A stretch of 64,000 bases of DNA from Naegleria gruberi (Eukaryota), in assembly GCA_000004985.1 (NCBI GenBank), contig GG738848.1. One strand, written 5' to 3'. Position 1 is the first letter of the stretch. The number at the start of each line of letters is the position of its first letter. Made by a program: the position numbers and the translations under genes. The notes beneath the pieces were generated by a model that saw nothing but the letters and a program-made list of their open reading frames with translations, ran no database searches and was not told the DNA's origin. Shown piece after piece: positions 7,506 to 64,000 of this stretch.

Positions 7506-8539
7506 ATGTGTCGTTGTGCTCGTACCCACGAAGATTCAACTTCCGCTCCAGTTGTTGCAGTCGATCGAGTTGTTTTGCCAAAGACTGTCAAGCCATTGAC
7601 TTATCGTTTGACTTTAAATCCCGATCTTGAGAAGTTTACCTTCACAGTGGAGGAACAAGTTGAATTAAAGTTGTTGGTGCAACCTTCGGAAATTACTAAA
7701 ATTGTTGCCAATTGCAAGGAAGTTGTTGTTCATAAAGCTTCATTGAGTGTTGGAAATACTCTATTGCCAATTACAAAGATCAGCTATGAGGAGGAGAATG
7801 ATTTTGTTAATTTTGAATTTGATCATAAAGATCAAGAATTTGCAAACTTGGAAATTGGAGATGTGATCACATTGAATATTCAATCAACAGGTGAATTGAA
7901 TGATAAATTGGTTGGATTTTATCGTAGCAAGTATTACAAGGATGGTGTTGAAAAGTATGGAGCTGTGACACAATTCGAAGCTGTCGATGCTAGAAGATGT
8001 TTTGTTTGTTGGGATGAACCTGCTTTAAAGGCAGTTTTTGAAGTTACTTTAATTGCTCCAAAAACTCATGTTGCCTTGTCCAATATGAATTGCATTGAAG
8101 AGAAGGAATATGACAATGATAAGAAGATTTGTAAATATGCTCCAACGCCAATCATGTCAACGTATTTGGTTGCCTTTGTAGTTTATGAATATGATTATGT
8201 AGAAGCTATTGCTACTGAAACTAAAAACAAGGTTCCAGTTAGAGTTTACACTCCATTGGGAAAGAAGGAACAGGGTGAATTTGCATTGGAAGTTGCTTGT
8301 AAATGCTTGGCTCTTTATGAAAAGTATTTTGATATTCCATATCCATTTGCAAAGATGGACATGGCTGGATGTCAACTCTCTGCTGGAGCTATGGAAAACA
8401 GTGGTTTGGTTTTGTACAGAGAAACAGCTCTCTATGTCGATCCAAAGAATACCAGTTCAAGTGCCAAGCAATATGTTGCTATTGTAGTAGCTCACGAATT
8501 GTCTCACCAATGGTTTGGAAATTTAGTTACTATGGAATG
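7506..8539 (+). CDS. M1-family aminopeptidase (puromycin-sensitive aminopeptidase / aminopeptidase N-like), exon 1. It ends inside the HEXXH...WFGNLVTMEW motif.
   Basis: GAMEN motif (AGAMENSGLVLYRE) and HELSHQWFGNLVTMEW zinc-binding motif. The exon ends at tg|GTAGGT, a phase-2 donor. Confidence 0.85.
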
Positions 8540-8621
8540 GTAGGTTTTATGCTAGTTGAAAGGTTTCTAATAGTTTTATGATGTTTCTAATAATTTTGAT
8601 GTGTTAATTTCGAAATATTAG

Positions 8622-10530: not shown

Positions 10531-11121
10531 ATGCAACAAACAAAAATCTTGAGCATTGCAGCCTTTTTGCTCGTCGTTCTTGCTGCTCTCTCTGTCGATG
10601 CCGGCATTTTGACTAGAACCAAATACAAGGGTTCTTTGAATCATAAATTATTACAACGTGATGCTAACCTTTTCAAGCGAACATTTGATGTCGATCAATG
10701 GATGACACAAAGATTGGACCATTTTGACCCACAAAATACCGAGACTTTCCAACAACGATTCTGGGTTAATGATACCATGTGGCAAGGAAAGAATGTTTTT
10801 ATTATTATTGGTGGTGAGGGACCAGCCAGTTCAAAGTATTTGACTGGACATTTTGTTATTAATGAATATGGAAAGAAGCACGGAGCTTTGCTTGCTGCTT
10901 TGGAACATCGTTTCTATGGTGAATCTGTTCCACGTAAATCACTTGCTACTGACAATTTGAGATATCTCACTTCCGAACAAGCATTGCAAGATTTGGTTGA
11001 ATTCCGTAGTTTGTTGGTCAAGAAATATAGAATGGATGAAGCTAATGTCAAATTTGTCTGCTTTGGAGGTAGTTATTCTGGTAATTTGTCTGCCTGGTTG
11101 AAGGCCAAGTATCCACATTTG
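10531..11121 (+). CDS. S28 family serine carboxypeptidase (lysosomal Pro-X carboxypeptidase / DPP2-like), exon 1, with a signal peptide.
   Basis: Signal peptide MQQTKILSIAAFLLVVLAALSVDA. S28 motifs FQQRFWVND, GGEGP, and GGSYSG (catalytic Ser in GxSxG). Donor GTAAGT at 11122. Confidence 0.8.
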
Positions 11122-11198
11122 GTAAGTTTAGATTAATGTGTTGCATTTATTCATATTTTTAAATATTTATGTGAAATCTAATTAATGAAAACGAACAG

Positions 11199-12083
11199 TT
11201 CGTTGGTGCTATTGCTTCAAGTGGTCCAGTCGAAGCTAAACTTGAATTCAATGAATATATGATGACTGTCGCTAATAGTATTGGTCCAAAATGTACTGAT
11301 AGAGTTAGAAAGGCCAATGATTTGATTGAACAATTGATTGCTACTCCTGCTGGTAGACAACGTGTTGCTTCCATGTTCAATGTCTGTAATCCAGAAAGCA
11401 TGACCAACAATGATGATATTGCATTGCTCTTCTCTAGTCTCTCTGATGGTGTCTGTGAAGTCGTTCAATACAATTTGGATAATAATGGAGCTCAAGGATT
11501 CAATGTTACATCAATGTGTGCCATTATTGAATCAAGTGATGATGCTTTGGAAGGTTTTGCCAATTGGGTCAAGACTTGGAATTCCTACAGTCAATCATCA
11601 TGTACTCAAAACTTGTACAGTGATTTCATCAAGCAAATGCAAGATGTTAGACCATGGCCTGCAAATGAAAATGCTGCTGGTCGTTCTTGGACATATCAAA
11701 CTTGTGTTGAATTTGGTTATTATCAAAATGCTGTTGGTCCAAAGCAACCATTCTCCCCAAGAATTACTTTGGAATGGTTCGTTCAACAATGTTCTCAAAT
11801 CTTTGGTATTAATGGAATGAAGCCAGATATTGACTTTACTAACAATATGTATGGTTCTAAGAATATTCAAACTACCAACACTGTTTTCAGTACTGGTTCT
11901 GTTGATCCATGGTCTGTTCTTGCTGTTGCTCAACCAACTAGAAATATTGCTCAAAATTATGTTTATCACATGCAAGGTACTGCTCACTGTGCTGATTTGT
12001 ATTCTAGCTCACCAAAGGATTTACCAACTCTTACTAATACCAGAGTTCAAACTCAAAAGTTGTTGGATCAATGGTTGGCATAA
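11199..12083 (+). CDS. S28 family serine carboxypeptidase, exon 2, after a 77-nt intron (11122..11198).
   Basis: Phase-0 splice gives ...KYPHL|FVGAIASSGPVEAK..., matching the S28 consensus (YPH..VGA.ASSAP). The frame continues into ORF 11259..12083, which has a catalytic His region (HCADL). Confidence 0.75.
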   Translation, partial: FVGAIASSGPVEAKLEFNEYMMTVANSIGPKCTDRVRKANDLIEQLIATPAGRQRVASMFNVCNPESMTNNDDIALLFSSLSDGVCEVVQYNLDNNGAQGFNVTSMCAIIESSDDALEGFANWVKTWNSYSQSSCTQNLYSDFIKQMQDVRPWPANENAAGRSWTYQTCVEFGYYQNAVGPKQPFSPRITLEWFVQQCSQIFGINGMKPDIDFTNNMYGSKNIQTTNTVFSTGSVDPWSVLAVAQPTRNIAQNYVYHMQGTAHCADLYSSSPKDLPTLTNTRVQTQKLLDQWLA

Positions 12084-14294: not shown

Positions 14295-15015
14295 CTAAAA
14301 CAACAATAATTGTTTCATTTCACTTATGTATTTGGATCCTTTATCACTAATTTCATTGTCAGAAATATTAAGTGATGTTAATTGTTTCATTTCACTTATG
14401 AATTTGGCTCCTTCATCACCAATTTCATTGTTATATATATCAAGTGATATCAATTGTTTCATTTCACTTATGAATTTGGCACCTTCATCACTAATTCGAT
14501 TTACACTAATATTAAGTGATGTTAATTGTTTCATTTCACTTATGTATTTAGCTCCCTCATCACTAATTTGATTGTAATAAATATCAAGTGATGTTAATTG
14601 TTTCATTTCACGTATTAATTTGAGTTGGTCTAAAGAGTCAAACAAATTTCCAGAAACTTTAAGATTAACAATACTATTCATGATTATCAACTTGAGTAAA
14701 TACAGCGAATTTGACACCTGACACATTTTCCAATGACTTGTGACTCTTACAGCTGCAGATTTAACACTTTCAGCAACTGCAAATGATAAATCTCCAGCAC
14801 TATATCTTGCCTCAGTCAATGAAAAGAATGATTTACGAAACAAGCTTGTCATTCCTTCCTTTTCTCACAATCGAATAAAACTTATTTCTCAAAGCATCTG
14901 ATTTCTTTCTAAGCATCGATTGACCACGTTTAGCACTATTCAAACGATTCTCCATTAATTGTAAGGTCATTCTATTCGGAACAACAGCCAATCTATTATT
15001 AATAGTAGCAGACAT
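14295..15015 (-). pseudogene. Chimeric / fragmentary locus. A V-type ATPase subunit D (VMA8-like) N-terminal fragment of about 115 aa is frameshifted once and then fused in frame to F-box/LRR-family repeats (5 LRR units), with no V-ATPase D C-terminal half.
   Basis: ORF 14833..15015 = MSATINNRLAVVPNRMTLQLMENRLNSAKRGQSMLRKKSDALRNKFYSIVRKG, matching the V-ATPase D N-terminus (FPTRMTL..MK.KLKGA.KGHSLLKKKSDAL..RFR). ORF 14295..14852 begins MTSLFRKSFFSLTEARYSAGDLSFAVAESVKSAAVRVTS, matching V-ATPase D (MQTAAFSLAEVSYATGENIGYQVQESVSTARFKVRA). It then switches to LKLIIMNSIVNLKVS...ISEMKQLTSLDIY..., which is identical in style to the 34999 and 43446 LRR genes. There is a +1 frame change between the two ORFs at about 14850. 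Confidence 0.55.
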
Positions 15016-27663: not shown

Positions 27664-28659
27664 TTAATTAGATACTAAATGTTGATCTACAAGTTCGTAT
27701 TCAATATCGTCATCATATTCATCTTCGTCATTAGTTCCATCAAAATCATTTTCCTCATCAGAGCCACTGCTATCCAAGTCATCTTCAATCGTGTGAATGA
27801 AATGAAATGCATTGGGGAGAGATGCTATCAAAAGGTTCAAAACTGTGCTAGTAGAAAACATTTTGTAAATGTTCTTTCCAACCTTTGATTCAGTAATTCC
27901 AATAATTTCCTTAAATTTCTTAACTGCTACAGGTTTTGGATAGTTTTGTTCATTCACTAGTTCGATAGCTTCTCCATTGTGAAAAGCCATAAGATTGTGG
28001 GAATGATAGCTAATCTCACAACACTTTATCAATACATTGTCAATATAAAATTGACAATCCTTAGTTTCATTTGTGAGAGAAACAGAAACTCCACTAGCAA
28101 ACAATGTTGGCGAATGATAACTCACTCTATTTAGCAAGTATTTCCAAATAGCTTTCCTGTAAGGCTCTCGATATTGATTGACAATTTTCCTCCAATCCTC
28201 TAGTTTCGAATCTCTAATTTGCTTTACTTCAATCAATTTTGAAACATTCGACAGTTTGGTGCTAAAAACATTAATTCTATTCCTATTTTCACGAAATACA
28301 ATACTCGATTCTTCTCTCTTGATTAATAAATCCAACTCTCGGTTCAATCTGTATTCAATAAATAATTCATGATGATTCAAAACCTCTCGGAATGCAGAGC
28401 ATGTTGATATGAAAGAGAATCCATCTTTAATATGCAAAAGATAGTCAATTATTAATGATACTATTTCTTTTGGAAGATCATTGAGTAATATTGTAGGATT
28501 ATAGATTGTAGAATTATCTTCGTCATCATTGGTTATCGGAACTGATTTGTCGAGTGCAAAATCAAACTCTTCTGGTCGAAATCTCTTCATTTTTTTCAAA
28601 TGGTCAATTACAAGATAATTATCGGAATTGATGACGACCTCATCATAATTAATTTTCAA
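27664..28659 (-). CDS. F-box domain protein with an acidic C-terminal tail (331 aa).
   Basis: LLNDLPKEIVSLIIDYLLHIKDGFSFISTCSAFREVL is F-box-like. The C-terminus is DEENDFDGTNDEDEYDDDIEYE. Confidence 0.55.
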   Translation of the reverse strand: MKINYDEVVINSDNYLVIDHLKKMKRFRPEEFDFALDKSVPITNDDEDNSTIYNPTILLNDLPKEIVSLIIDYLLHIKDGFSFISTCSAFREVLNHHELFIEYRLNRELDLLIKREESSIVFRENRNRINVFSTKLSNVSKLIEVKQIRDSKLEDWRKIVNQYREPYRKAIWKYLLNRVSYHSPTLFASGVSVSLTNETKDCQFYIDNVLIKCCEISYHSHNLMAFHNGEAIELVNEQNYPKPVAVKKFKEIIGITESKVGKNIYKMFSTSTVLNLLIASLPNAFHFIHTIEDDLDSSGSDEENDFDGTNDEDEYDDDIEYELVDQHLVSN

Positions 28660-34998: not shown

Positions 34999-36240
34999 AT
35001 GAGCAAACGAAAAAGACAAGATTTTGAAAATCATCATCGCTTAATTAATTCGGAGGAAATATTCACTAACAATTTTAATAATAATATGGAAGAGAAAGCA
35101 AAAAAGAGTGTGAAATTCCAACAAGAAGAAATATTTTCAGATGATGTTTGTTTTGAAATAATCTCCATGATTGATGATTCATGGTTTATTTTAAATAATT
35201 GTTGTTTAATTTCAAAACAATTCTTTAATGTGATCAAGGAACGTTCAAAACTTGTTATTCAATTTAACAAAAAATTTACAGAGAAACGAGTTGAATTATG
35301 CATGAAAAGTCAATTCATGAATAGTATTGTTAATCTTAAAGTTTCTCGTTGGTTGCTTGACTCTGTAGACCAACTCAAATTCATAAGTGAAATGAAACAA
35401 TTAACATCACTCGATATATATAGCAATCGAATTGGTGTAGAAGGAGTTAAATATATAAGTGAAATGAAACAATTAACATCACTTAATATTTCTGAAATTG
35501 AAATTAGTGATGAAGGAGCCAAATATATAAGTGAAATGAAACAATTAACATCACTTTATATACATAATAACGAAATTGGTGATGAAGGATCCAAACACAT
35601 AAGTGAAATGAAACAATTAACATCACTTAATATTGGTTGTAATGAAATTAGTGATGAAGGAGCTAAACATATAAGTGAAATGAACCAATTGATATCGCTT
35701 AGTATTGGTTACAATCGAATTGGTGATGAAGGATTCAAATATATAAGTGAAATGAAACAATTAACATCACTCGATATTACTGACGATGAAATTGGTGATG
35801 AAGGAGCTAAATATATCAGTGAAATGAAACAATTAACATCACTAAATATTGGTTTTAATGAAATTGGTGATGAAGGAGCCAAATACATCAGCGAATTGAA
35901 ACAATTAACATCACTTGATATTTCTGAAACTGAAATTAGTGATGAAGGAGCCAAATATATAAGTGAAATGAAACAATTGATATGGCTTACTATTGGTTAT
36001 AATGAAATTAGTGACAAAGGAGCTAAATACATCAGCGAACTGAAACAATTAACATCACTCGATATTACTGACAATAAAATTGGTAATGAAGGAGCCAAAT
36101 ATATAAGTGAAATGAACCAATTGATATCGCTTAATATTGGTTACAATCGAATTGGTGATGAAGGAGCCAAATATATAAGTGAAATGAAACAATTGACATC
36201 ACTAAGACAAATCAGTTTAGGATTTTACTGTAATAATTGA
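34999..36240 (+). CDS. F-box-like plus RNI-type leucine-rich-repeat protein (413 aa) with about 12 tandem 24-aa LRRs (xISEMKQLTSLDISxNxIGDEGAKY).
   Basis: The N-terminus FSDDVCFEIISMIDDSWFILNNCCLISKQFFNV is F-box-like. It is followed by near-identical 72-bp repeat units. A paralog of 43446 and of the 14295 fragment. Confidence 0.75.
   Translation: MSKRKRQDFENHHRLINSEEIFTNNFNNNMEEKAKKSVKFQQEEIFSDDVCFEIISMIDDSWFILNNCCLISKQFFNVIKERSKLVIQFNKKFTEKRVELCMKSQFMNSIVNLKVSRWLLDSVDQLKFISEMKQLTSLDIYSNRIGVEGVKYISEMKQLTSLNISEIEISDEGAKYISEMKQLTSLYIHNNEIGDEGSKHISEMKQLTSLNIGCNEISDEGAKHISEMNQLISLSIGYNRIGDEGFKYISEMKQLTSLDITDDEIGDEGAKYISEMKQLTSLNIGFNEIGDEGAKYISELKQLTSLDISETEISDEGAKYISEMKQLIWLTIGYNEISDKGAKYISELKQLTSLDITDNKIGNEGAKYISEMNQLISLNIGYNRIGDEGAKYISEMKQLTSLRQISLGFYCNN
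35335..36220. repeat. Tandem 72-bp coding repeat array (LRR units) inside the 34999 gene.
   Basis: Repeated gaaatgaaacaattaacatcact...ggtgatgaaggagccaaatatataagt units. They generate spurious antisense ORFs (35310..35522, 35709..35954). Confidence 0.75.
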
Positions 36241-39158: not shown

Positions 39159-39288
39159 GTAAGTATTATTCCTTTTCTTTACAAGGTAATAATTTAAATT
39201 ATTTTACAAAATATTTAACATGTTTAATATAATTATAATATATTTAAAAAAATATTTACAAACAAAAAATCAATATCATTGAAAATAG

Positions 39289-39765
39289 TATTGGGAGGTA
39301 AAAGAGAAGATCTTACACAATCACTCTGGCAAGAAGGAATTGTCGTTCCATGTTTCGATTTGTTGATTGCCATTTTCAATCGAAAGAATTTCTATTATCC
39401 AAATGCAGAATATCATCACGAAGAATCTGATGAAGTTGAACAGCAAGTATTCGATCTGTTCGATCAAAAGAAGATTCTCAACATTATTCATCCGAATAAT
39501 CAGAAATTGATTGAGGAAATTGCTGAAATGTGGAACAATGAACCAATTTTGAGAAAGGTCTGTACGGAAATGCTTTTGGAAAATCAAGTGGAATCGGTTC
39601 CGGTTGAGGATGTGAATTATTATTTTTCCAGAGCTGTTGCAGTTCATCGGGGAGATAAACCATCGGATAAGGATTTGTTAATTTCACAAAGAAAGACAAC
39701 TGGTGTTACACATGTTGAATTTGCATTTAATAATGGTTCTACTTTGGTTAATATTTGGGATTGTG
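39289..39765 (+). CDS. G-protein alpha subunit, exon 2 (helical-domain region and switch I), after a 130-nt intron (39159..39288).
   Basis: Contains RKTTGVTHVEF (switch I, RxxTxGI-like) and ends WDCG|GTAAGT. Confidence 0.65.
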
Positions 39766-39832
39766 GTAAGTGAAATCATATTTTTGATTGTAAAATGTGA
39801 AATTTTGTGTAAATTTATGAATAATAATATAG

Positions 39833-40422
39833 GTGGTCAGAAAAATGAAAGAAAGAAGTGGAAATACATGTTTACCGAATCTCAAAAGTTAACAGGAAAG
39901 ATCTTTGTCATTTATTTCGTAGCTCTTTCAGAATATAATCAATTGTGCTACGAAGACGAAACCACCAACCGAACTCACGAATCTTTGAAAATTTTCGAGA
40001 GTGTTGCCAATAATCCAGAGTATGAGAATTATCCTCTCTTCCTCATCTTTACAAAGAAGGACATTTTCAAACAAAAATTGAGATATACCAGTTTATCTGT
40101 CTGTTTTGAAGATTGTCCAGAAGATTTGAAAGCTAACGAAGACACTACCAAGATAAAGAGAGATATCATTAACAATTGGACTGGATTTTTAGAGGATAGA
40201 CAATGTGTCTCTGATGAAATTTATGAAAAATCATTTGATTTTGTCAAGAGAAAATTTATGGAGCGAATTTCCAATGCCGATCGCAGAAAACAAACTGAAA
40301 AGAATATCAAGGTTGTGAATGCAATGGATGCTGATGATGTGAGAAGTAATCTTGTTGAAGAATTATTGGAACAAACAATGGTGGAAGAAATATATAAGGA
40401 TGATTTGGTTCATTATCTTTAA
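39833..40422 (+). CDS. G-protein alpha subunit, exon 3 (switch II to C-terminus), after a 67-nt intron (39766..39832).
   Basis: The splice restores the G3 box DCGGQKNERKKWKYMF (DVGGQRSERKKWIHCF consensus). Then FLIFTKKDIF (NKxD-like FLNKKD) and NAMDAD (TCATDT position). Stop TAA at 40420-40422. Confidence 0.75.
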
Positions 40423-43445: not shown

Positions 43446-44672
43446 ATGAGCAAACGAAATAGACAAGATTTTGAAAATTATCATCAATTTATTAATTCGG
43501 AGGAAATATTCACTAACAATTTTAATATTATGGAAGAGAAGGCAAAAAAGAGTGTGAAATTCCAACAAGAAATATTTTCAGATGATGTTTGTTTTGAAAT
43601 AATTTCCATGATTGATGATTCATGGTTTATTTTAAATAATTGTTGTTTAATTTCAAAACAATTCTTTAATGTGATCAAGGAACGTTCAAAACTTGTTATT
43701 CAATTTAACAAAAAATTTACAAAGAAACGAGTTCAATTATTCATGAAAAGTCAATTCATGAATAGTATTGTTAATCTTAAAGTTTCTCGCCGGTTACTTG
43801 ACTCTTTAGAACAACCCAAATTCATAAGTGAAATGAAACAATTAACATCACTTAATATTTCTGACAATCAAATTGGCTTAGAAGGAGCCAAATACATCAG
43901 TGAAATGACACAATTAACATCACTTGATATTAGTGTAAATCGAATTGGTGTTGAAGGAGCTAAATTCATAAGTGAAATGAAACAATTAACATCACTTGAT
44001 ATTAGTGTAAATCGAATTGGTGTTGAAGGAGTTAAATTCATAAGCGAAATGAAACAATTAACATCACTTGATATTTCTGACAATCAAATTGGCTTAGAAG
44101 GATCCAAATACATCAGTGAAATGACACAATTAACATCACTTGATATTAGTGTAAATCGAATTGGTGTTGAAGGAGCTAAATTCATAAGTGAAATGAAACA
44201 ATTAACATCACTTAATATTAGTGTAAATCGAATTGGTGTTGAAGGAGTTAAATTCATAAGTGAAATGAAACAATTAACATCACTTGATATTTCTGACAAT
44301 CAAATTGGCTTAGGAGCCAAATACATAAGTGAAATGACACAATTAACATCACTTGATATTTCTGTAAATCGAATTGGTGATGAAGGAGCTAAATTCATAA
44401 GTGAAATGAAACAATTAACATCACTTGATATTTGTGACAATCAAATTGGTGTTGAAGGAGCCAAATTCATAAGCGAAATGACACAATTAACATCACTTGT
44501 TATTACTAGCAATCGAATTGGTGTTGAAGGAGCTAAATTCATAAGTGAAATGAAACAATTAACATCACTTGATATTTCTGGCAATCGAATTGGTGATGAA
44601 GGAGTTAAATTCATAAGTGAAATGAAACAATTAACATCACTTAATATTAGTGTAAATCGAATTGGTGGATGA
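43446..44672 (+). CDS. F-box-like plus RNI-type LRR protein, intact part (408 aa), paralog of 34999. About 12 near-identical 24-aa LRR units.
   Basis: The N-terminal 100 aa are almost identical to the 34999 gene (MSKRNRQDFENYHQFINSEEIFTNNF...CFEIISMIDDSWFILNNCCLISKQFFNVIKERSKLVIQFNKKFT). The repeats read ISEMKQLTSLDISVNRIGVEGAKF. Confidence 0.7.
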   Translation: MSKRNRQDFENYHQFINSEEIFTNNFNIMEEKAKKSVKFQQEIFSDDVCFEIISMIDDSWFILNNCCLISKQFFNVIKERSKLVIQFNKKFTKKRVQLFMKSQFMNSIVNLKVSRRLLDSLEQPKFISEMKQLTSLNISDNQIGLEGAKYISEMTQLTSLDISVNRIGVEGAKFISEMKQLTSLDISVNRIGVEGVKFISEMKQLTSLDISDNQIGLEGSKYISEMTQLTSLDISVNRIGVEGAKFISEMKQLTSLNISVNRIGVEGVKFISEMKQLTSLDISDNQIGLGAKYISEMTQLTSLDISVNRIGDEGAKFISEMKQLTSLDICDNQIGVEGAKFISEMTQLTSLVITSNRIGVEGAKFISEMKQLTSLDISGNRIGDEGVKFISEMKQLTSLNISVNRIGG

Positions 44673-47783: not shown

Positions 47784-48331
47784 TTTTGTATATTATTTAC
47801 AACAACAATATTAAATAATTTAAATAATTTAAATAAATTGATGATCATTATCATAATTCTCAAAATCGAGAGCAGTAAATATTAATTTGCTGTTGATGAT
47901 CAGAAAAAGTCGCGTTAAGGAAAAACTGAGCAAACAAGTGTTGTTATTTTTTTTGATTTGTTTTTGTGGCCCTAAAAAGGAAAATTAGCTGGAATAGATC
48001 AACCCAAATATGGTACTTTCATTTTACTGTAAAAATCTGAGAAAAATATTCTTTAATTTCAAAATTGCATTGCTAAAAGTTGAATAGATGAAACTAAACT
48101 CTGATTCTGATAAAGTGCTAATATTATTAATTTTGGAAATTAGTAAGTTTTGAGATTTTCTTTTTAGAGCTCTTCCACCTGCAAGAATATATATCTGGCA
48201 GTGTGTACCAGGATCCTCTGTGGTTGTAATTTGTTTCTATTGTAATTTGCTCACGTTATAGAGAATCACGTTTCGAAATCCCTTTAAATTTGTCACACTG
48301 GTAAATTAAACTTGCTTATTCGAAACAAAAA

Positions 48332-49675
48332 ATGCTTTCTTTCGCCTTTAGAGTTTTTAAACCTTTAATTTATAGTGTAGTTGGACTTTTTCAACCTTCT
48401 GATCCTGCTGTATCTTCCTCCTATGTGAGATTGGCCAATACTCTATTCGAATTACATTTTAATTATATTGAGAATAAGAAACCAATTTCCAATTTCTTTA
48501 TAACTTGTGAGTTTGATGGTAAAACAGTGAGAAAGCAAGTATTACTAAAAGGTGATGGAAAACGTGATGGTGGTATCTATCATCATGCAGTTGAACTTCA
48601 TCCACAAAAGTTAATGTCCATTAAGGTGGAAACCGAAAGTGGAAGGTTGTTATTCGAAGCTCTAGATATTAATACCAACAGTTTCAAACAAGAAACTCTA
48701 ACATTAATGGAAATGTCTATTCCAGACAGAAAGCAAGAACTATTCGATTCTATTAAGGACAAATTAATTTCCATTTCCAAAAATGTAATCATTGGATCCA
48801 TGTCCATCACATTTAGTGGCAAATCATCCCTCCTCAACAATATCTTCAAAACACTTGGTTCCAAACATGTTCCATTCCCAGTAGGAAGCACAGAACAAGC
48901 AAGAGAAGCTTACAAACTATTTTATGGAAGTTATCCAAGTAATGATTATTTGTCGTCGTTCACCACTGAAATTCTCAAGAAAAATGTGGATGATGTTGAG
49001 GGAATGGAATCTCTTTGGATTTGGGATTTGCCTGGAATTTTCGAATTTACCACTGCCGGTCAAATGCCAACACTTTTGAGTTTGACAGATGACTTATTGA
49101 ACAAGTTATTTGTTACAAAGAATGGAATGATGAAATTGAATGGTAACCAAGAGGATAAAAAAGTCAATCGAGAAGAAGAAGAATTCTCACTGAAACCTCA
49201 AGCTTTAATTGTAACTCTTCCATTGGAGAATAGTTTCGCCTATAATTCCACAAGTGATAATAATATTGCGTTATATTTTGGAAGAATTTCTGGATTTCTA
49301 TCAAAGGAGCATAATGTGAAATCTGTTTATTGTTATACCAAGATAGACGAAACTTATATTTACCAGAATTACATTTCAAAGAATGTGGGAATTACTAGCA
49401 TGTTGGACGAAACTGATCCTACACCAGATCAAATGAAACTCAATTTACTCAAACAATTCCATGAATGGGATATTTTAGAAAGAAAGGATAATAATTTTCC
49501 AGATATGGTTAACAGTGATCATACAATTCCTTTTTTATCAATCAATTCCCCAACTAAGGAAATTGACAACTTTTTCCAAGTTCAATATTTGGAAGTGTTA
49601 AATCTGGCATTGGATAAATGTTTCCAGAAGAAATCATCCCTCTCATGTGAATCCATTTGCATTGTTAAAAAATAA
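48332..49675 (+). CDS. IRG (p47 immunity-related GTPase)-like protein (447 aa) with a degenerate P-loop.
   Basis: VIIGSMSITFSGKSSLLNNIFKTLG ... WIWDLPGIFEF aligns with the IRG consensus [22 protein letters not shown] ... FWDLPGIGS (G1 and G3 boxes). The P-loop has an insertion and lacks the canonical GxxxxGKS spacing. Confidence 0.5.
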   Translation: MLSFAFRVFKPLIYSVVGLFQPSDPAVSSSYVRLANTLFELHFNYIENKKPISNFFITCEFDGKTVRKQVLLKGDGKRDGGIYHHAVELHPQKLMSIKVETESGRLLFEALDINTNSFKQETLTLMEMSIPDRKQELFDSIKDKLISISKNVIIGSMSITFSGKSSLLNNIFKTLGSKHVPFPVGSTEQAREAYKLFYGSYPSNDYLSSFTTEILKKNVDDVEGMESLWIWDLPGIFEFTTAGQMPTLLSLTDDLLNKLFVTKNGMMKLNGNQEDKKVNREEEEFSLKPQALIVTLPLENSFAYNSTSDNNIALYFGRISGFLSKEHNVKSVYCYTKIDETYIYQNYISKNVGITSMLDETDPTPDQMKLNLLKQFHEWDILERKDNNFPDMVNSDHTIPFLSINSPTKEIDNFFQVQYLEVLNLALDKCFQKKSSLSCESICIVKK

Positions 49676-49803: not shown

Positions 49804-50667
49804 TTATTCCTTTACAGATTTAAGCAATTTTGATGCACTCGCCAAAATTTCAAAATGATACCCATTTCTCGAAATATATGGAGAGTGTACAATGCGTTTC
49901 ATTTGTGCACCAACGAAAATGAAATCTTTTGGAGTCAAACTTTCAAGCGAATCTGGCGATCTTCCTGATATAAAAATGAAACTCTTTACAATAATCTTTC
50001 GTGTAAATCTTGGTGATTTTTCAACGTGATTGAAAATCGTTTCGTCAAGTTTGTCCATGTGGGGAATATTTTCATAGAATAAATTGTCAATTCTTGGGGA
50101 TTTGACAAGAGTTGGAGAATTAGGTGTGAATGAATTGTAATTTTCTTGAAATTTGTTTTCGAGAAGAGAATTGTTTTGATCTGGTTTTTTGGCAAAGTAT
50201 TTGCATGTTACTAATGTTGGCTGGATCAAAAATAGAATGCTTATCATTATCATTTGAAAGATTGACAACAAGATGATTGAGATATACGAAAGTGAAACTG
50301 AAACCAAGACGGCAAGAGATGATTTTTGAGAGAATGTCAATTTCTGGGTAGTACAATAACCCAAGGAAGTTAAAAATCTCAAATTGAACAAGAAAATTGA
50401 ACCAGCATCTTCGTGATGAAGAATTGTCAATAAGAGTTCCCACCAATTTCTATACGATACTCGACTATTGTCTGTAAAAAACAAAAGGAAGGGTAGAAAG
50501 TTTGCCAACAAGTAAATCCATCCATTTCTATCTTCCATAGCAAGCTCTTGGTGCATTCTGATTCTTTCGTAATTCATTTTTTTGTTATTCGAAACGTGAT
50601 TTTCCTCCTTACCAATCTTAACATTCCTTGAAACGTGATTTTTCAACAATCCTAAACAGACTGTCAT
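49804..50667 (-). CDS. Hypothetical multi-pass membrane protein (287 aa).
   Basis: ORF with several hydrophobic helices (LLANFLPFLLFF, AVLVSVSLSYISIILLSIFQMIMISILFLI). Confidence 0.4.
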   Translation of the reverse strand: MTVCLGLLKNHVSRNVKIGKEENHVSNNKKMNYERIRMHQELAMEDRNGWIYLLANFLPFLLFFTDNSRVSYRNWWELLLTILHHEDAGSIFLFNLRFLTSLGYCTTQKLTFSQKSSLAVLVSVSLSYISIILLSIFQMIMISILFLIQPTLVTCKYFAKKPDQNNSLLENKFQENYNSFTPNSPTLVKSPRIDNLFYENIPHMDKLDETIFNHVEKSPRFTRKIIVKSFIFISGRSPDSLESLTPKDFIFVGAQMKRIVHSPYISRNGYHFEILASASKLLKSVKE

Positions 50668-50699
50668 CAGAAAACGTGATTAAACTTTAAAAAAAAACG

Positions 50700-51401
50700 A
50701 TGGGTAGATTAGTATATCTTGCAGCTGCAGGATTAGTTGGATATTTGCTTGGAACGAGACAAACTAATACTGACAGCCCAAGTTCACTTTCGAATAACTC
50801 GCCACAATCATTGATTGAGGTTTCTACAACAGACCCAGTTGTGGAATTTCAGCAATTGGCTGTGGTTTCTAATCCCAGTGATATTGAAGAAACATCATCT
50901 ACAGCTTTGGAAGTTATTCTAAACGATTCGTCTCCCAAATCCCTCACATGGTATAATACTGCACTCTATACTACAATTCTATTACTTTCATGTAAACTTG
51001 GAGTTTCGATTTATACCACACTGTTCACAACCTTCAGTATTCCAATGTCTTTGCAAGAACAGATTCGTATTCCAATTCTAATAACTAAAAACTATTCCTC
51101 TGAATGCTACAATCACTCTCTCCTTCTCAATCTACTCAATAGCAAAATGAAAGATTCTCGCTTCACATTTGAATTTTGCTCAGCTCCCGAAAAACCTCAT
51201 TTGAATTGTTGTTTCTATCTGGAAGATAGTAGAGATGTGAAAAGTCCATTCGACAAGTCAATTCTCTACATTGTGAATAGTAAAATAGCACAAGCAGTGA
51301 ATAGACCTCACATGTTCGTGTGTGCTCATTCGACCAATATTTTGGAATTGAAGAATATTCAGAATTTGATGGAATATTTGGAGATTAATTTTGTGGTATA
51401 G
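50700..51401 (+). CDS. Hypothetical protein (233 aa) with an N-terminal hydrophobic anchor or signal.
   Basis: MGRLVYLAAAGLVGYLLG N-terminus; ORF from the track. Confidence 0.4.
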   Translation: MGRLVYLAAAGLVGYLLGTRQTNTDSPSSLSNNSPQSLIEVSTTDPVVEFQQLAVVSNPSDIEETSSTALEVILNDSSPKSLTWYNTALYTTILLLSCKLGVSIYTTLFTTFSIPMSLQEQIRIPILITKNYSSECYNHSLLLNLLNSKMKDSRFTFEFCSAPEKPHLNCCFYLEDSRDVKSPFDKSILYIVNSKIAQAVNRPHMFVCAHSTNILELKNIQNLMEYLEINFVV

Positions 51402-57329: not shown

Positions 57330-57402
57330 TGCTGACGGACGGGATCGAACCGGCGACCAATGGCTTATTAGACCAACGCTCTACCGACTGAGCTACGCCA
57401 GC
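57330..57402 (-). tRNA. tRNA-Ile (anticodon AAT), 73 nt, no encoded CCA.
   Basis: The reverse complement GCTGGCGTAGCTCAGTCGGTAGAGCGTTGGTCTAATAAGCCATTGGTCGCCGGTTCGATCCCGTCCGTCAGCA folds as a cloverleaf: 7-bp acceptor stem, D-loop AGTCGGTAGA, anticodon loop CTAATAA, and T-loop GGTTCGATCC. Near-identical to eukaryotic tRNA-Ile(AAU). Confidence 0.9.
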
Positions 57403-57567: not shown

Positions 57568-57648
57568 GTTGAGGTGGCCGAGTGGTTAAGGCGCCAGCCT
57601 GCTAAGTTGGTGGAGAAATCCGCGTGGGTTCGAATCCCATCCTCAACG
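57568..57648 (+). tRNA. tRNA-Ser (anticodon GCT), 81 nt with a long variable arm, no encoded CCA.
   Basis: GTTGAGGTGGCCGAGTGGTTAAGGCGCCAGCCTGCTAAGTTGGTGGAGAAATCCGCGTGGGTTCGAATCCCATCCTCAACG. Acceptor GTTGAGG / CCTCAAC, D-arm TGGCCGAGTGGTTAAGGCG, anticodon loop CTGCTAA, variable arm, T-arm GTGGGTTCGAATCCCAT. Confidence 0.9.
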
Positions 57649-57741: not shown

Positions 57742-58947
57742 TTATTTATTGAAAGAAGTATTGTCAAATGCAACTTTTGTGTCTTGAAACAAATCTTGAA
57801 GAAATGAATAATCGACATCATTGTCGACCACCTTTTCCACAACTGGGACTGGATTTGAAACATTGATAAATATCAATTTCTTCAGTTTCTCATAGAATTC
57901 AGAAATAATATCAGCAAGAGGTTGGACAAGAACTTGGAAGACACCTGTCAGAATATTCCAAATAAATTTCCAAGTAAATGAAACTGTGGCTGCACCCACT
58001 TTGGTGGATTCAATTAAATATTTGACAAATGATTGCAAATATCCATTAAAATTATAGTTGAATGAATCCTTTTCCTTAAATAGTGAAATAATTTGAGTAA
58101 TTGTGAAATAGGCCAATCCTGCTACAGCTGTGATAAACAAAGATTTGAGATCTAATTTGATTTTCTTCATGGCCAAAGCAGGAACTAGAACTGAAGTAAT
58201 GGCCAGCAATTTTTCATAGCTGAAAGTTTTTAAAAGGTAAACTTCTGAAACAAGTTCCCAAATCTTTCCTAAAAATTGAGAAATGGTTTCGTCTTGAAAA
58301 TCAAATGGACTTGAAATTGGGACTACCTTATCTCCACTACATAGTAATGCCAATTGTTTGAAATTAATCAAATTCTTTGCCTTTTTGAAAAGAGTTTTCA
58401 TATCTGAACGTTGGTCAACTGTGGCATACGGTTGACAGTTCAGTGTCAAGATAGAAATGTCCTTGTCAGGATACTGTTTCTTCATCTTGTAAGCAACTTC
58501 ACAGGCAACGCTTCCTCCAGCTTTATAGCCAGTTACAATAATGTTGTAATTGGTTGTTTTAACTGAAGGCGCAAACTTTTCATAAATCATATTCGAAACT
58601 TGGCTAATAGTTTCCAAATCCTCCTTCTCTTCATTAAATGACTTGCAAACCAAAACGATCAATTGCTTGCCATCAAATTGAATAAATTGTCCAAGAGAAA
58701 TTCTATTCTCAAAGTTACACGAAACGGTCGAATCTGCAATGAGAGGTTTTACGTCTTGTTGCGAAACAACTTGTGCAAGCCATTTCTTTGTTGGAAAATT
58801 GTCAATGTCAATGACTTGCAATTCTTCGAATGGTTGGCTAGTCACGACAGGAATGAGAGATTCTAATGAATGGACCGATTCTAATGGTGTTAGTGATTCT
58901 ACTGATTCGACTGAGGATGTGAACCATCCTGTTAACCAACTTGACAT
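57742..58947 (-). CDS. Lipase class-3-like protein (401 aa) with a degenerate nucleophile motif (GYKAG in place of GHSxG), so a probable pseudoenzyme. C-terminal hydrophobic region.
   Basis: Collinear with the 59120 paralog (NIIVTGYKAGGSVACEVAYKM aligns to KVICCGHSRGAGIASYLGYHI). The catalytic Ser position is Lys. Confidence 0.55.
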   Translation of the reverse strand: MSSWLTGWFTSSVESVESLTPLESVHSLESLIPVVTSQPFEELQVIDIDNFPTKKWLAQVVSQQDVKPLIADSTVSCNFENRISLGQFIQFDGKQLIVLVCKSFNEEKEDLETISQVSNMIYEKFAPSVKTTNYNIIVTGYKAGGSVACEVAYKMKKQYPDKDISILTLNCQPYATVDQRSDMKTLFKKAKNLINFKQLALLCSGDKVVPISSPFDFQDETISQFLGKIWELVSEVYLLKTFSYEKLLAITSVLVPALAMKKIKLDLKSLFITAVAGLAYFTITQIISLFKEKDSFNYNFNGYLQSFVKYLIESTKVGAATVSFTWKFIWNILTGVFQVLVQPLADIISEFYEKLKKLIFINVSNPVPVVEKVVDNDVDYSFLQDLFQDTKVAFDNTSFNK

Positions 58948-59119
58948 TTTTTTGAAGATTTGAAGCTTGACAGTTGCATTAGAGAATGATTAGTTGTGCT
59001 TCACGATCACGTTTTGATTAATAACCCAAAAAATCTTAAACGTGATAATCATTTTGTTCAAAGTGTCAAATATCAATCACGTTTTACATTTTAAATAATT
59101 AATTCGAAAAAAAATAGAA

Positions 59120-60250
59120 ATGACACTCACCAACATTGATATTGAAAATAAAGAGATTTTAAAGTGGCTATGCAAAAGAACAAACTCAATCTATAGCTCA
59201 ACTTTGTTGCCAGAATTGTCAGAACTTCCGTTGAAATCTGGCAGCTTGATATTTCATGATAACAATAATTCAGTATTGGCAGTAGCAGATATATATGATT
59301 CAATAGGATCAGTAGTGGTTACTTGTAAAGGAAGTCAATCAATCTATGACTGGGTGTCAAATTTCACTGAATTTCCAACAACTTCTAATCAAAATTCTAT
59401 TCCTGATTTCATTTACGAGAATGCATTGAAAATTTCACAGAAATTTGATAGAGAATCGCCAAATATTTTCAATAATAAGAAGGTGATTTGTTGTGGGCAT
59501 AGTAGAGGTGCAGGAATTGCTTCTTATTTGGGCTATCATATTGCTTCAAATTCCAAGAACTGTCAAGTGTCTGTTTTGACATTTAGCTCAATTCCATATG
59601 CCAATGATCAATTTAAAACTGCTTTCGACAATGTAATTTACAAAGCTAAGAATATCATTTCAATTCTAGATCCACTTCAAACTTTATGGGTTTCTAGAAA
59701 TATCCCAGGAGAAACTAGAATATTGGAATTCACCTATCCAGGTGCATCAGCAATTGCACTCTTTACCATTCCACTAACAGCATTCGTTAAGGAGATTCAT
59801 TGTCTGTTTGACAAAATTTTCCATTTGCAAGGAATTTCTGAAATATTGGAATGTGCAACATCTTTTGCCTTATTTAAAGGTACAAGTCAATTCTTGTCCT
59901 TTTCTGGACTGGTGACCATGTTTCTTATGGATGTTGGAGTTAATGTATTCCAAGGAAAGTGTCACAAGATGGATTATACACAGCATGTAGTTGGAGGTGG
60001 CGTTGAACCTCTTATTAAGGCAGTTTTTGAGTTGCTGTCTGATGTCAACAACAAGACAACCAACCTGGTGAATTTGATAACTAAGTTTGTGATGGGACCA
60101 TTATTTGGATTGTTGAAGAAACTTTTCGTGAATGTTGTTGATCTGATCGATCAATTATGGAACGCCCTAAAGGAATTTGTGGGACAAGCTGTTAATTTCT
60201 TTAAATCTAGTTTATCTTTGATTTCCTATCATCCAATAGTGCAAAATTAA
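59120..60250 (+). CDS. Lipase class-3 (fungal-lipase-like alpha/beta hydrolase) protein (376 aa) with an intact GHSRG nucleophile elbow.
   Basis: VICCGHSRGAGIASYLGYHIA (GHSxG lipase_3 motif). Hydrophobic C-terminal third. Divergently oriented to the 57742 paralog. Confidence 0.6.
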   Translation: MTLTNIDIENKEILKWLCKRTNSIYSSTLLPELSELPLKSGSLIFHDNNNSVLAVADIYDSIGSVVVTCKGSQSIYDWVSNFTEFPTTSNQNSIPDFIYENALKISQKFDRESPNIFNNKKVICCGHSRGAGIASYLGYHIASNSKNCQVSVLTFSSIPYANDQFKTAFDNVIYKAKNIISILDPLQTLWVSRNIPGETRILEFTYPGASAIALFTIPLTAFVKEIHCLFDKIFHLQGISEILECATSFALFKGTSQFLSFSGLVTMFLMDVGVNVFQGKCHKMDYTQHVVGGGVEPLIKAVFELLSDVNNKTTNLVNLITKFVMGPLFGLLKKLFVNVVDLIDQLWNALKEFVGQAVNFFKSSLSLISYHPIVQN

Positions 60251-60276: not shown

Positions 60277-61521
60277 TTATAATGAAAAATGATAGAATTC
60301 TCTCGTAAAACTCAAAGGACGGCTATTATATAATTTACACAAAGATTTCAATTCAAATTTGTAAAAACCTGTATCAATAATTCCTCCATAGCTATCTCTT
60401 GAATATGCTCCATGATACCTATGAAATTCAGCAATATTTTGCACAATCAATCCATAACCTCCTCCTTGATAAGGGCATTCCAATATTTTTGGTTTAAACT
60501 TGGAATAAATAATATCAAAGGGATGGACTCTTGAACTCTTCATATGAACCCCTCCAGAAGAAGTTGTCATTCCATAGAAGAAACATCCAATTAATACTCG
60601 GTAGATTCCAACATCTTTGCAATCTTGAAAAGTGTTCGAATTATTCTTGCTGTAAATACGACTTTTGAGAAATCCAGGAGTGTAGTATTGGTAAATTTGG
60701 TCAATTGTGGTCAAGTTTCTTGTATAGCAATTTATGTAAGTCACATCCAGCATGAAACATGTCTCAGTTCCGTCGAGTTTTCCCATTAAAAAATAATGTA
60801 CCAAGTTGGTTGTAGAACTTGCTGTGTCAAAAGTTTTGAGTTTGATGTAAACTTGTTTCTTTTCTTGATCCACATCAAGAATGTCAACCAATCTTGAAAG
60901 TATTTCATTTTCTAACATTAAATTGACATTCTTGCAATCTGAAATATTCAAATATTTGACAATCTCCAAAATGGAATCAAATTTCAAATCAAATTCAATG
61001 TGCATAACATTTGTATTCTTCCGTTCAGCACCAATGATTGAATAGAAAGTCTCTTTCTTCATTCGTTCATTCCCCATATTAAAATTGTTCTTGACTTCGT
61101 CTAACGAATTGCAATCATTCTTTTCCAAATCAAAACTCTTTGTATGATCAAAACCACATTTGAATCGAATAATTATCTTTGATCTCTTAATATTTACAAC
61201 ATGATCATGACCATTTGGCATGACTTTTCCCTCCTGTATAGATTGCTCCATCAAACCCTCATGATCATTCGATCCATCACTCACCACTGGAGCATAATTT
61301 CTACTATTCATAAATTGCTCCAAAAGTTGTTGATCTAAATTTTCTCTCTTCTTCCGATCATGAAAAGTAATCCTTGTCTTGACAATAATTCCGAAACTCT
61401 GCAAAATTTCAATCAGGGATGATTTATCAGCATTCTTCTTGTTATTATTATTTGTATTCTTTTCCCTCCTCTTGTGATGATCAGAAGCTGATGAACCTCT
61501 CTTTACATCATGTTGAGACAT
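60277..61521 (-). CDS. Hypothetical protein (414 aa). No domain recognised.
   Basis: Long ORF with a basic Asn-rich N-terminus and a Gly/Tyr-rich C-terminal region (GGGYGLIVQNIAEFHRYHGAYSRDSYGGIIDTGFYKF). Confidence 0.4.
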   Translation of the reverse strand: MSQHDVKRGSSASDHHKRREKNTNNNNKKNADKSSLIEILQSFGIIVKTRITFHDRKKRENLDQQLLEQFMNSRNYAPVVSDGSNDHEGLMEQSIQEGKVMPNGHDHVVNIKRSKIIIRFKCGFDHTKSFDLEKNDCNSLDEVKNNFNMGNERMKKETFYSIIGAERKNTNVMHIEFDLKFDSILEIVKYLNISDCKNVNLMLENEILSRLVDILDVDQEKKQVYIKLKTFDTASSTTNLVHYFLMGKLDGTETCFMLDVTYINCYTRNLTTIDQIYQYYTPGFLKSRIYSKNNSNTFQDCKDVGIYRVLIGCFFYGMTTSSGGVHMKSSRVHPFDIIYSKFKPKILECPYQGGGYGLIVQNIAEFHRYHGAYSRDSYGGIIDTGFYKFELKSLCKLYNSRPLSFTREFYHFSL

Positions 61522-61591: not shown

Positions 61592-62329
61592 TTATTCACT
61601 TTCATTAATTGGCTTGATCTCATCATCTTCTAATTCTTGATTTCCATTCTTATTCTTCTTCATCTTGTTGATCACTCTACGGACAAGTCCCAATACTTTC
61701 AATGCGATGAAACTCATCACAATGAAACCACCATTAAGCATCATGACAATAAAAACCTTCCTTGGAATGTAAGTGACATTTGGTGGAACCATTGTTAAAT
61801 CATTGAAATTATTAAGGAAACAATAATATTTCGTAAGGGGTTGCATACTTGCCAATACTTCATTGGCCAATGAAAAACTTGTGGTAACAACGCCTGAATA
61901 GAGAACTCCATCACTCGGAGTGTTGACCATTGATACTAGCCAAGCTGGTGAATAACAAGATCCTCCAATAGAGCACGTCTCTGCACTCTTTGGAATCGTA
62001 CGCCTATCAGATTCTTCTCTCGAATAGACCGGTGTAATAATTGTCTCTGAATTTTGATAATACAATGATTTCAGATGAATTGGAGTAACAAAATTGAATT
62101 CTCTCTTTGCAATCTCACAATCATAAGCAGTACATCTGTGCTCATTCAATGAGGATAAAATCATCTCACACGAACGAATGGTTTCCGTATTTTCCAATCC
62201 ATATTGTCGGAAAAACTCTGTCAATATATAAGTAAATACCACAATGGAAACAATTAGAGTCATTAAGAGAATGAACCGAATAGGATCCTTCCTTGCCAAT
62301 TCCTTAATCTGCTCCAATTTATCTAACAT
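61592..62329 (-). CDS. Hypothetical membrane protein (245 aa) with two TM segments and a lumenal Cys-containing domain.
   Basis: TM helices IRFILLMTLIVSIVVFTYIL and VFIVMMLNGGFIVMSFIALKVLGLV. Confidence 0.4.
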   Translation of the reverse strand: MLDKLEQIKELARKDPIRFILLMTLIVSIVVFTYILTEFFRQYGLENTETIRSCEMILSSLNEHRCTAYDCEIAKREFNFVTPIHLKSLYYQNSETIITPVYSREESDRRTIPKSAETCSIGGSCYSPAWLVSMVNTPSDGVLYSGVVTTSFSLANEVLASMQPLTKYYCFLNNFNDLTMVPPNVTYIPRKVFIVMMLNGGFIVMSFIALKVLGLVRRVINKMKKNKNGNQELEDDEIKPINESE

Positions 62330-62997
62330 TGATTTTTTTCTTTTTGATTTTAAAATCGCGAATTTCCATTGAGCTTAATACTATTTCCAACCAACTTCCA
62401 AGATAAAGCTAGTTCGTGTAACTAGTTAAAGATATTACGGCATGTTACCTGTTGTTGTTTTTTAAAAGATTTGGAAAACGATCAAGCTTCTTATTATCGA
62501 GAGTTAAGATAACATGATGTGCCACCATGCCAATTTTAAGATCAATCCACTGATATCAAAGCCAACAAGCCCAAACTCAAGAAGTGTTAATGTTGAATGG
62601 TTATGTGAATGCTCATGTGTAACTCAAGTGCCCTAACTTCCTTATACTCAGTCAATTACAACAGATCTACCCAAACTTTTCTTTTCTTGTTCAATATTTT
62701 CAATATTCTTGATAGGAAACAATAGACAATATATTGTTTTAATTTCACTCTACAGGAACACCTTTGGGACTTCATTCTTCCACAATCAAGAGCAAGTTTT
62801 CCGGTTGTAAATCATTCAATGAAATTGAGAGAGGATTCGTATAGGAGTTTGTTTCTAATGTTTCTAATGATGAGAAGAGAAAAAATCTTGGTCACCACTT
62901 GGATATGAGCCCGATGAAAAGGCAAATATCAAGGTTGACTAACCGATTTGTGTTAAAACTAATCAAAAAAAAATAATCAAACATCTGACACTTTCAC

Positions 62998-64000
62998 ATG
63001 ACATCCGTCAATAAGAACAAGGCTCTGTTTGAAAAGCTGGATGCCAGCGCAGCCAAAGACCAGCACATTTTGAATGGTGGAGCTACAACTACTGTACAAA
63101 AGAAACCATCATCAATTTCAACATCCAATAATTCGTCTAGTTTCGGCAAAGCAAAATCATCAAATAATAATAATACTAAAACAACCAATAATAATAATAC
63201 CAAAACGACAAATTCATCATCCACTTCATCATCATCCTTTCTAAACAAGACTAATAGTTCACCATCATTGAAATCGAATAATAATTCGAATAGTGCTTCA
63301 GCAACCAAGACCACACCAACTCCACCTCCTTTCAAACAAACCACCACAACTCCCACTGCGCCACCAAAAACCAGCACAGTTTCCACCACTTCTGTCAATT
63401 CACTCAACAAACTATCAACCAACAGTCAATCAAGTCCAACCTTGAAAAGTACTTCAACCACCAGCAGCAGTATTAACAGTCCTAGTGGTAGCACACGTAA
63501 AGCACCTCCTCCACCATCATCCTCTTCATCATCAGCATCATCAACTTCTCCTAAACTGCCATCAACACCAAGTACGTCAGCCATCAAAAAAACATCAAAC
63601 ACTCCAAGTACTCCAAGCACACCAATTTCTGCACTTGTGGACAATGATTACTTTAGTTCAATTACTAAAGATGTTCCAAAGAGTGAAATTAAAATATCTG
63701 GTCCTAAAGGATTGACACACGTTGGTCATGCCTCAACTAATGATCCAACTGCATTGTTTAAGAAAAATGCTCGATCTCAAACGATTACTGGTGGAGAACT
63801 TTCGAATAGTTCAACAAAGAAGAGGGATGGAGTGAGTTTTGATGTTCCTGTAAGTGAAAAGAGTGAAAAGAAGGATGGAGAAGCATCTGGTTCGAGTGCT
63901 AAACAAGTTTTGAATCAGGCAACTGATAAATTGAAAAGTGGAATGTCCAAGATGACCAATTTGGTCAAGACTACTTGGGCTGCTGTTGGAAATGATAGTC
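62998..64000 (+). CDS. Partial gene (runs off the window end) for a Ser/Thr/Asn/Pro-rich low-complexity protein with a CRIB-like motif (ISGPKGLTHVGH).
   Basis: By hand translation, ATG at 62998 opens a frame with no stops to 64000. The terminal 110 aa are non-repetitive and contain I-S-x-P-x3-L-T-H-V-G-H, which resembles the CRIB consensus ISxPxxFxHxxHVG. The track's minus-strand ORFs here (62994..63422, 63426..63644) are antisense artefacts of this low-complexity region. Confidence 0.45.
   Translation, partial: MTSVNKNKALFEKLDASAAKDQHILNGGATTTVQKKPSSISTSNNSSSFGKAKSSNNNNTKTTNNNNTKTTNSSSTSSSSFLNKTNSSPSLKSNNNSNSASATKTTPTPPPFKQTTTTPTAPPKTSTVSTTSVNSLNKLSTNSQSSPTLKSTSTTSSSINSPSGSTRKAPPPPSSSSSSASSTSPKLPSTPSTSAIKKTSNTPSTPSTPISALVDNDYFSSITKDVPKSEIKISGPKGLTHVGHASTNDPTALFKKNARSQTITGGELSNSSTKKRDGVSFDVPVSEKSEKKDGEASGSSAKQVLNQATDKLKSGMSKMTNLVKTTWAAVGNDS

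Follow-up and report, generated by a model that had tools for sequence, protein, structure and literature searches.

We have analysed a 64,000-nucleotide stretch of the Naegleria gruberi genome (contig GG738848.1, assembly GCA_000004985.1; the whole stretch is referred to as the window) and describe here two neighbouring, divergently transcribed genes related to class-3 lipases. The two open reading frames (ORFs), designated A and B, are intronless and lie together on a 2.5-kb fragment. A first-pass annotation, made from the DNA letters alone, had proposed that they are head-to-head paralogs, one an active lipase and the other a dead copy. Its coordinates and orientation agree with the ORF list for both genes, and the divergent region that it put at about 170 bp measures 172 bp between the start codons. 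The locus is laid out as follows.

57742-58947, minus strand: ORF A, 401 aa, class-3-lipase-like paralog that lacks the catalytic Ser and His
58948-59119, no strand assigned: divergent intergenic spacer, 172 bp, presumed shared promoter region
59120-60250, plus strand: ORF B, 376 aa, class-3 lipase with intact triad, hydrophobic insertion and helical tail

ORF B matches the Pfam family Lipase_3 (PF01764) with a score of 47.4 bits (E=2.3e-12), residues 66-185 covering profile positions 1-131 of 140; the gathering cut-off of the family is 22 bits. Comparison with a generic lipase_3 profile using hhalign gave E=7.5e-22. The GHSRG motif, already picked out at first pass as the nucleophile elbow, aligns with the serine column of the class-3 lipases. 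In a 16-sequence alignment Ser128 and Asp184 occupy columns that are invariant among generic lipases and His282 a column that is nearly so. A profile search of the PDB equates the Ser and Asp columns with Ser144 and Asp203 of Rhizomucor miehei lipase. The oxyanion motif KGS is also kept. The catalytic residues are located as follows.

59495-59509, plus strand: GHSRG nucleophile elbow, residues 126-130, with Ser128 on the invariant Ser column
59669-59671, plus strand: Asp184 (in SILDPLQ), aligned with the invariant Asp of generic lipase_3 proteins
59963-59965, plus strand: His282 (in GKCHKMDY), on the His of the H-x-x-x-Y motif of generic lipase_3 proteins and matching GKAHSMVY of a Willaertia relative

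Judged by its sequence, ORF B most likely encodes an active acyl-ester hydrolase of the lipase, phospholipase A1 (PLA1) or diacylglycerol (DAG) lipase type. When B alone was used to search the sequences of the PDB, the sole match was a resemblance of residues 272-312 (59933-60055) to the microtubule-binding repeats of tau (QGKCHKMDYTQHVVGGG against QSKCGSKDNIKHVPGGG, E=0.046), which was judged to be due to chance.

ORF A presents a different active site. The first-pass annotation had read its elbow as GYKAG, with His changed to Tyr and the catalytic Ser to Lys, and two independent alignments do place Lys142 on the nucleophile column. In the first of these, a BLASTP match of A to B across 252 aa (21% identity, E=3e-7) sets GYKAG opposite GHSRG. 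The second uses a generic profile of 11 short lipase_3 proteins, from which both window proteins were left out: the segment IIVTGYKAGGSVACEVAY of A falls on the profile motif Ii..GHSrGgaLAt..a (hhalign, E=6e-6) and Lys142 again takes the place of the serine, so that a misaligned elbow with the nucleophile elsewhere is not what the profile indicates. The changes extend beyond the elbow. The column of the catalytic His contains, depending on the alignment, either a gap or Asp294, and the only histidine in the entire protein, His26, is found within the disordered N-terminus. The oxyanion motif KGS of B reads KSF in A, from which the DW..N motif has also gone. The sites concerned, together with the unusual N-terminal segment, are listed here.

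58516-58530, minus strand: GYKAG elbow, residues 140-144, with Tyr for His and Lys142 for the catalytic Ser; both elbow glycines retained
58066-58074, minus strand: residues 292-294 (E-K-D), at the site of GK-x-H-x-M-x-Y in active relatives; catalytic His lost
58801-58947, minus strand: N-terminal low-complexity Ser/Glu/Leu stretch, residues 1-49, with repeated S-x-E-S units (SVESVESLTPLESVHSLESL)

Aligned to lipase_3 profiles, therefore, B has a complete triad (S128/D184/H282) and A lacks both Ser and His. With two or more members of the triad missing, ORF A cannot be a canonical serine hydrolase. The sequence supports reading A as a pseudoenzyme, in which the fold would be retained and Ser, His and the oxyanion GS are lost, and at this level the enzyme/dead-enzyme pairing suggested at first pass is upheld.

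The overall layout predicted for A comprises a disordered acidic and Ser-rich region (residues 1-82), an alpha/beta core (approximately 83-215), a hydrophobic insertion and a helical tail. The disordered N-terminus has a predicted local distance difference test score (pLDDT) of around 30, and a single 9-bp x 2.3 array (58894-58914) was detected in the N-terminal segment by Tandem Repeats Finder. Two antisense ORFs, 58663-58866 and 58739-58963, were taken to be shadows of ORF A.

The score of ORF A against PF01764 is 17 bits, under the gathering cut-off, and its assignment to the class-3 lipases therefore rests on paralogy and profile comparison. In addition to the BLASTP match, hhalign finds A collinear with B and two relatives over residues 45-358 of A (about 280 columns, E=1.3e-7) with the same elbow register, and in shuffle tests the similarity of the A and B cores has z=11. 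These comparisons identify A as a distant paralog of B. With only about 21% identity between them, the duplication must be old. The shared class-3 core claimed at first pass thus stands as regards collinearity, but Pfam scoring by itself would not have admitted A. No third copy was found by tblastn within the window, which holds this pair only.

Both proteins carry additional elements in their C-terminal halves, as follows.

58072-58302, minus strand: hydrophobic helical insertion of A, residues 216-292; grand average of hydropathy (GRAVY) 0.65, uncharged run 269-290
57862-58062, minus strand: helical tail of A, residues 296-362, with amphipathic helix (ADIISEFYEKLKKLI); as similar to the Willaertia tail as is that of B
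59735-59953, plus strand: hydrophobic helical insertion of B, residues 206-278, placed after the Asp strand and ahead of the His loop; GRAVY 0.90
59987-60214, plus strand: helical tail of B, residues 290-365, with amphipathic helix (VVDLIDQLWNALKEF)

The insertion, of around 75 aa, separates the Asp strand from the His loop in A, in B and in the Willaertia protein. Its sequence is not conserved. Its composition is distinctive, with GRAVY values of 0.65-0.94 in all three proteins against about -0.12 to +0.06 in their cores, and with uncharged runs of 18-26 residues; this accounts for the hydrophobic C-terminal region that had been noticed in both copies. The tail (about 70-80 aa) is predicted to be helical, and an amphipathic helix with a hydrophobic moment of around 0.6 occurs at a homologous position in each of the three. 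No signal peptide was found in members of the subfamily, and a Pfam search of the C-terminal halves (E up to 1) returned nothing but weak, unrelated DUF and YmgL matches. To judge by their composition, the insertion and tail may hold the proteins at the surface of a membrane or lipid droplet, or may serve as a lid.

AlphaFold2 (AF2) models of both proteins were made from lipase-rich alignments, and only the cores are confident (B residues 40-205, pLDDT 80-95; A residues 83-195, pLDDT 74-94). Searched with Foldseek, the B model matches 1uza, 3tgl and 2ix9 (E=9e-8 to 1e-6, TMt up to 0.62) and the A model gives PDB matches with E=7e-6 to 3e-4 over 135-183 columns. The modelled cores of both resemble fungal class-3 lipases, feruloyl esterase A and plant PLA1.

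Relatives of this pair are few. Among 1.84 billion representative proteins B has 15 matches at E<1e-3, of which the sole full-length relative is a hypothetical protein, KAL9644854.1, of Willaertia magna (34% identity to B, E=4e-35). W. magna belongs to the Heterolobosea (Naegleriidae) and its genome has been published (PMC11702301). A metagenomic protein fragment of 125 aa belongs to the same subfamily. The other matches are generic lipase_3 proteins, mostly of 190-300 aa, which do not have the C-terminal module, and an unrelated 775-aa repeat protein. Like B, the Willaertia protein has a CCGHSRG elbow and a GK-x-H-x-M-x-Y loop, together with a hydrophobic insertion and an amphipathic tail. 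Unlike the locus described here, it is encoded by a single gene of the active type with unrelated neighbours (an RRM gene and an unrelated ORF) and no adjoining dead copy. Scanning metagenomes with the elbow pattern recovered seven loci, all generic lipase_3 cores (26-32% identity), and none of the seven has the tail. By sequence the pair belongs to a small, lineage-restricted subfamily of Lipase_3 that consists of A and B, the one Willaertia protein and the one metagenome fragment. The fragment ends in ...GIASYL followed by GTAAC (L002, 1573-1590); it is the first exon of an intron-containing gene, the rest of which is cut off by the contig end.

The reading frame of A is well preserved. At the stop frequency of the window (0.062 per codon), 401 open codons would arise by chance with P ~7e-12, and the other five frames across the same DNA contain 17-34 stops each. 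Codon log-odds in frame are +0.31 for A and +0.18 for B, compared with -0.4 to -0.6 off frame. Reference genes with Pfam support give +0.32 to +0.60 in frame 0, which puts A at the low end of their range and B somewhat lower. Alignment scores divide the protein into two parts. For the core the scores are 85 (A-B), 91 (A-Willaertia) and 267 (B-Willaertia). For the tail they are 78 for A-Willaertia (z=11.4) and 75 for B-Willaertia (z=9.2). Decay in A appears from these scores to be asymmetric, the catalytic core having been released from constraint and the tail not. The intact 401-codon frame, the gene-like codon usage and a tail that has changed no more than that of the active lineage together indicate that ORF A is a gene and not a decaying pseudogene.

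The spacer between the two genes contains three exact copies of the 9-mer ATCACGTTT, the middle one inverted.

59006-59014, plus strand: ATCACGTTT, first of three copies in the spacer, exact match
59038-59046, minus strand (inverted): ATCACGTTT, second copy, exact match
59076-59084, plus strand: ATCACGTTT, third copy, exact match
48265-48273, 48560-48568, 50592-50600, 50631-50639 and 50672-50680: exact copies of ATCACGTTT outside the spacer

The window has eight exact copies in all, where about 0.8 would be expected (CpG is depleted, with an observed/expected ratio of 0.5). They include two triplets with a spacing of some 32-41 bp, one in the lipase spacer and the other directly upstream of ORF 50700-51401; these are the only two spacers in the 64 kb that hold three copies. 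A further one is found 67 bp ahead of ORF 48332-49675. The genes downstream of the non-lipase sites belong to no Pfam family. We consider ATCACGTTT a good candidate for a promoter or transcription-factor element of this genome, one that is not specific to the lipase pair. The spacer with its three copies fits a shared bidirectional control region. Upstream of the Willaertia gene only a CACGTTT core was found, at about 70 bp, and this is not significant. A scan of the spacer for bacterial promoters and terminators was uninformative, and irrelevant to a eukaryote.

The reading that we favour, with a probability of roughly 60%, is that A and B are divergent products of an ancient duplication, B an active surface hydrolase and A a maintained, non-catalytic paralog. 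The old duplication would have given two divergently transcribed members of a Lipase_3 subfamily. B would be an acyl-ester hydrolase seated on the surface of a membrane or lipid droplet through its insertion and tail. A would have kept the fold, the elbow glycines, the insertion and the tail, would have lost the serine-hydrolase mechanism, and would be maintained as a protein that acts non-catalytically through the retained tail and insertion, possibly on the same membrane or droplet as B. A might work together with B, whether as its partner, as a scaffold or as a regulator, and the ATCACGTTT elements in the 172-bp spacer may control transcription in both directions. The role of A as regulator or partner is one that we infer; the regulator or decoy function and the co-regulation proposed at first pass are likewise possibilities.

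A number of observations weigh against this reading. The 10 kb flanking the Willaertia gene on each side contain no further lipase, and the divergent neighbour of the metagenome fragment is a DM9 gene, so the pair is not conserved there. Word-indexed protein searches with B, with A and with a four-sequence alignment gave no matches and so no A-type ortholog, these being weak negatives (the alignment query missed even the Willaertia protein); the case for purifying selection on A consequently consists of its intact ORF and its retained tail. The triad Asp of A varies with the alignment, being absent, D206 or D216. The C-terminal halves of both AF2 models, all helical, are of low confidence, which leaves a lid, anchor or dimerisation reading of them without structural support, and the alignment behind the A model is dominated by lipases, so that its fold match is partly built in. 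Intact triads can also be dispensable, as in EDS1, and the activity and substrate of B are predicted.

The leading alternative, itself unlikely, is that A has been neofunctionalised to a role unrelated to B. Its position next to B would then simply record an inverted duplication that took place locally long ago, and the motifs of the spacer would be a generic promoter element. The absence of the pairing in both relatives seen and the age of the duplication implied by an A-B identity of about 21% are in keeping with this, as is the presence of ATCACGTTT ahead of unrelated genes at 48265 and 50592-50680. Class-3 lipase folds have moreover been recruited to non-lipid roles, for example in mt-LAF18 (PDB 6yxx). 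However, A keeps the subfamily-specific insertion and the amphipathic tail of B and the Willaertia protein, which argues for the same cellular location, and just two spacers in the window share the threefold arrangement of the 9-mer.

A stronger version of the partnership, to which we attach a low probability, would make the pair an obligate heteromeric module bound to a membrane or lipid droplet, in which the triad-less A recruits, gates or senses for B by way of the tail and insertion. By analogy, such a module would be an independently evolved protist counterpart of EDS1-SAG101, co-induced through ATCACGTTT.

We regard as very improbable the proposal that A is an enzyme with a non-canonical centre, using another serine such as Ser146 or a lysine-based chemistry. 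In its favour, A keeps both glycines of the elbow and perhaps an Asp (D206 or D216), and Ser146 is only four residues past the elbow, but there is no His anywhere beyond residue 26 and the oxyanion GS has become SF. To our knowledge, no alpha/beta hydrolase uses an elbow Lys as its nucleophile. That A is a non-functional relic, a pseudogene yet without stops, is just as remote a prospect: the missing catalytic residues, the Pfam score under threshold and the failure of the word-indexed searches (weak negatives) to find orthologs would suit it, but a frame that has stayed open for 401 codons while some 80% of residues came to differ from the paralog, with gene-like codon usage and a tail no less conserved than that of the active lineage, does not.

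On the favoured reading of B as a surface hydrolase and A as its maintained non-catalytic paralog, the locus would be a clean natural case of asymmetric divergence after duplication in a class-3 lipase fold, in which the core decayed and the C-terminal module was kept. The hydrophobic and amphipathic module is lineage-specific and marks a subfamily that is uncharacterised and very small when set against the roughly 1.8 billion representatives. Should A and B work together, they would offer a simple two-gene system in which to ask how an inactive lipase modulates its active partner at the surface of a lipid; should they not, this is routine paralog biology. The pair is tidy but unsurprising, a kind of enzyme/pseudoenzyme combination that is already known.

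The surroundings of the locus have eukaryotic gene content, which includes Rab-GDI, an ABCC-type transporter, G-alpha, a trypsin-family protease (Pfam Trypsin), and leucine-rich repeat (LRR) and F-box proteins. GC content is about 33% along the whole window. Several conserved genes are divided over neighbouring ORFs: a Peptidase_M1/ERAP1-like gene (7506-8543 and 8662-10266), a Peptidase_S28 gene (10531-11136 and 11259-12083) and the G-alpha gene (39279-39773 and 39703-40422). Such splitting points to short spliceosomal introns of about 100 bp, hence to a eukaryotic window in which mechanical ORF lists under-call genes. Within 340 bp past the 3' end of ORF A lie tRNA-Ile(AAT) (57330-57402, minus strand) and tRNA-Ser(GCT) (57568-57648, plus strand). 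Downstream of B, a convergent 414-aa ORF (60277-61521, minus strand) has its 3' end 27 bp from the B stop, and is followed by a 245-aa ORF (61592-62329, minus strand) with hydrophobic segments near both termini; neither belongs to a Pfam family. Several RNI-type LRR (LRR_6) proteins (14295-14852, 34999-36240, 43446-44672) and F-box-like proteins (5516-7249, 27664-28659) are encoded within the 64 kb, which suggests that these families are expanded in the genome. In the last kilobase or so of the window (62994-63715) long overlapping ORFs occur on both strands with repetitive, low-complexity translations, rich in V/L/G/D on one strand and in H/Q/L on the other, suggestive of a simple-repeat or low-complexity coding region. 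A tandem-repeat scan gave two trivial short arrays only.

Three known systems are useful for comparison. The first is the fungal-type class-3 lipases (PF01764), for which we took Rhizomucor miehei and Thermomyces lanuginosus lipases, Aspergillus feruloyl esterase A and plant DAD1-like PLA1. B has in common with them an alpha/beta core with a GHSxG elbow, an Asp where a D-x-V-P-type strand ends and a His in an H-x-x-x-Y loop, and they are the best structural matches of both models. Identity of the window proteins to solved class-3 structures is only 12-22%. In contrast to this group the window proteins have no signal peptide, and from ORF A the Ser, His and oxyanion motif have gone. The insertion of about 75 aa between Asp and His and the helical tail of about 80 aa set the present subfamily apart from the generic short lipase_3 proteins, which have neither.

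Class-3 lipase folds are also recruited for non-lipid or structural roles, the example in Discoba being mt-LAF18, although nothing points to such a role for ORF A. This protein, a component of a Trypanosoma brucei mitoribosome assembly intermediate (PDB 6yxx/6yxy), matched the family profile with E=3.3e-7. It shows a class-3 lipase fold serving in ribosome assembly, and its likeness to the window proteins is limited to the lipase core.

In the third system, plant EDS1, PAD4 and SAG101, a class-3 lipase-like domain is followed by an all-helical C-terminal domain. Members of this group were among the PDB matches of both the B model and the family profile, and the B model matches the lipase-like domains of EDS1 and PAD4. 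The long alignments of the B model to PAD4 have root-mean-square deviations of 18-20 Å, so that the lipase domain alone matches. No Pfam match to the EP (EDS1-PAD4) domain was obtained on the tails of A or B, and these tails are much shorter and are hydrophobic or amphipathic. The plant proteins are established to act as paralog heterodimers, with SAG101 lacking the triad (cf. bioRxiv 10.1101/2021.12.15.472806). The window pair likewise combines a lipase-like domain with a helical C-terminal part and has one member without a triad. We therefore see in EDS1/PAD4/SAG101 the closest functional analogy to ORFs A and B, as an analogy and not as membership of that family.

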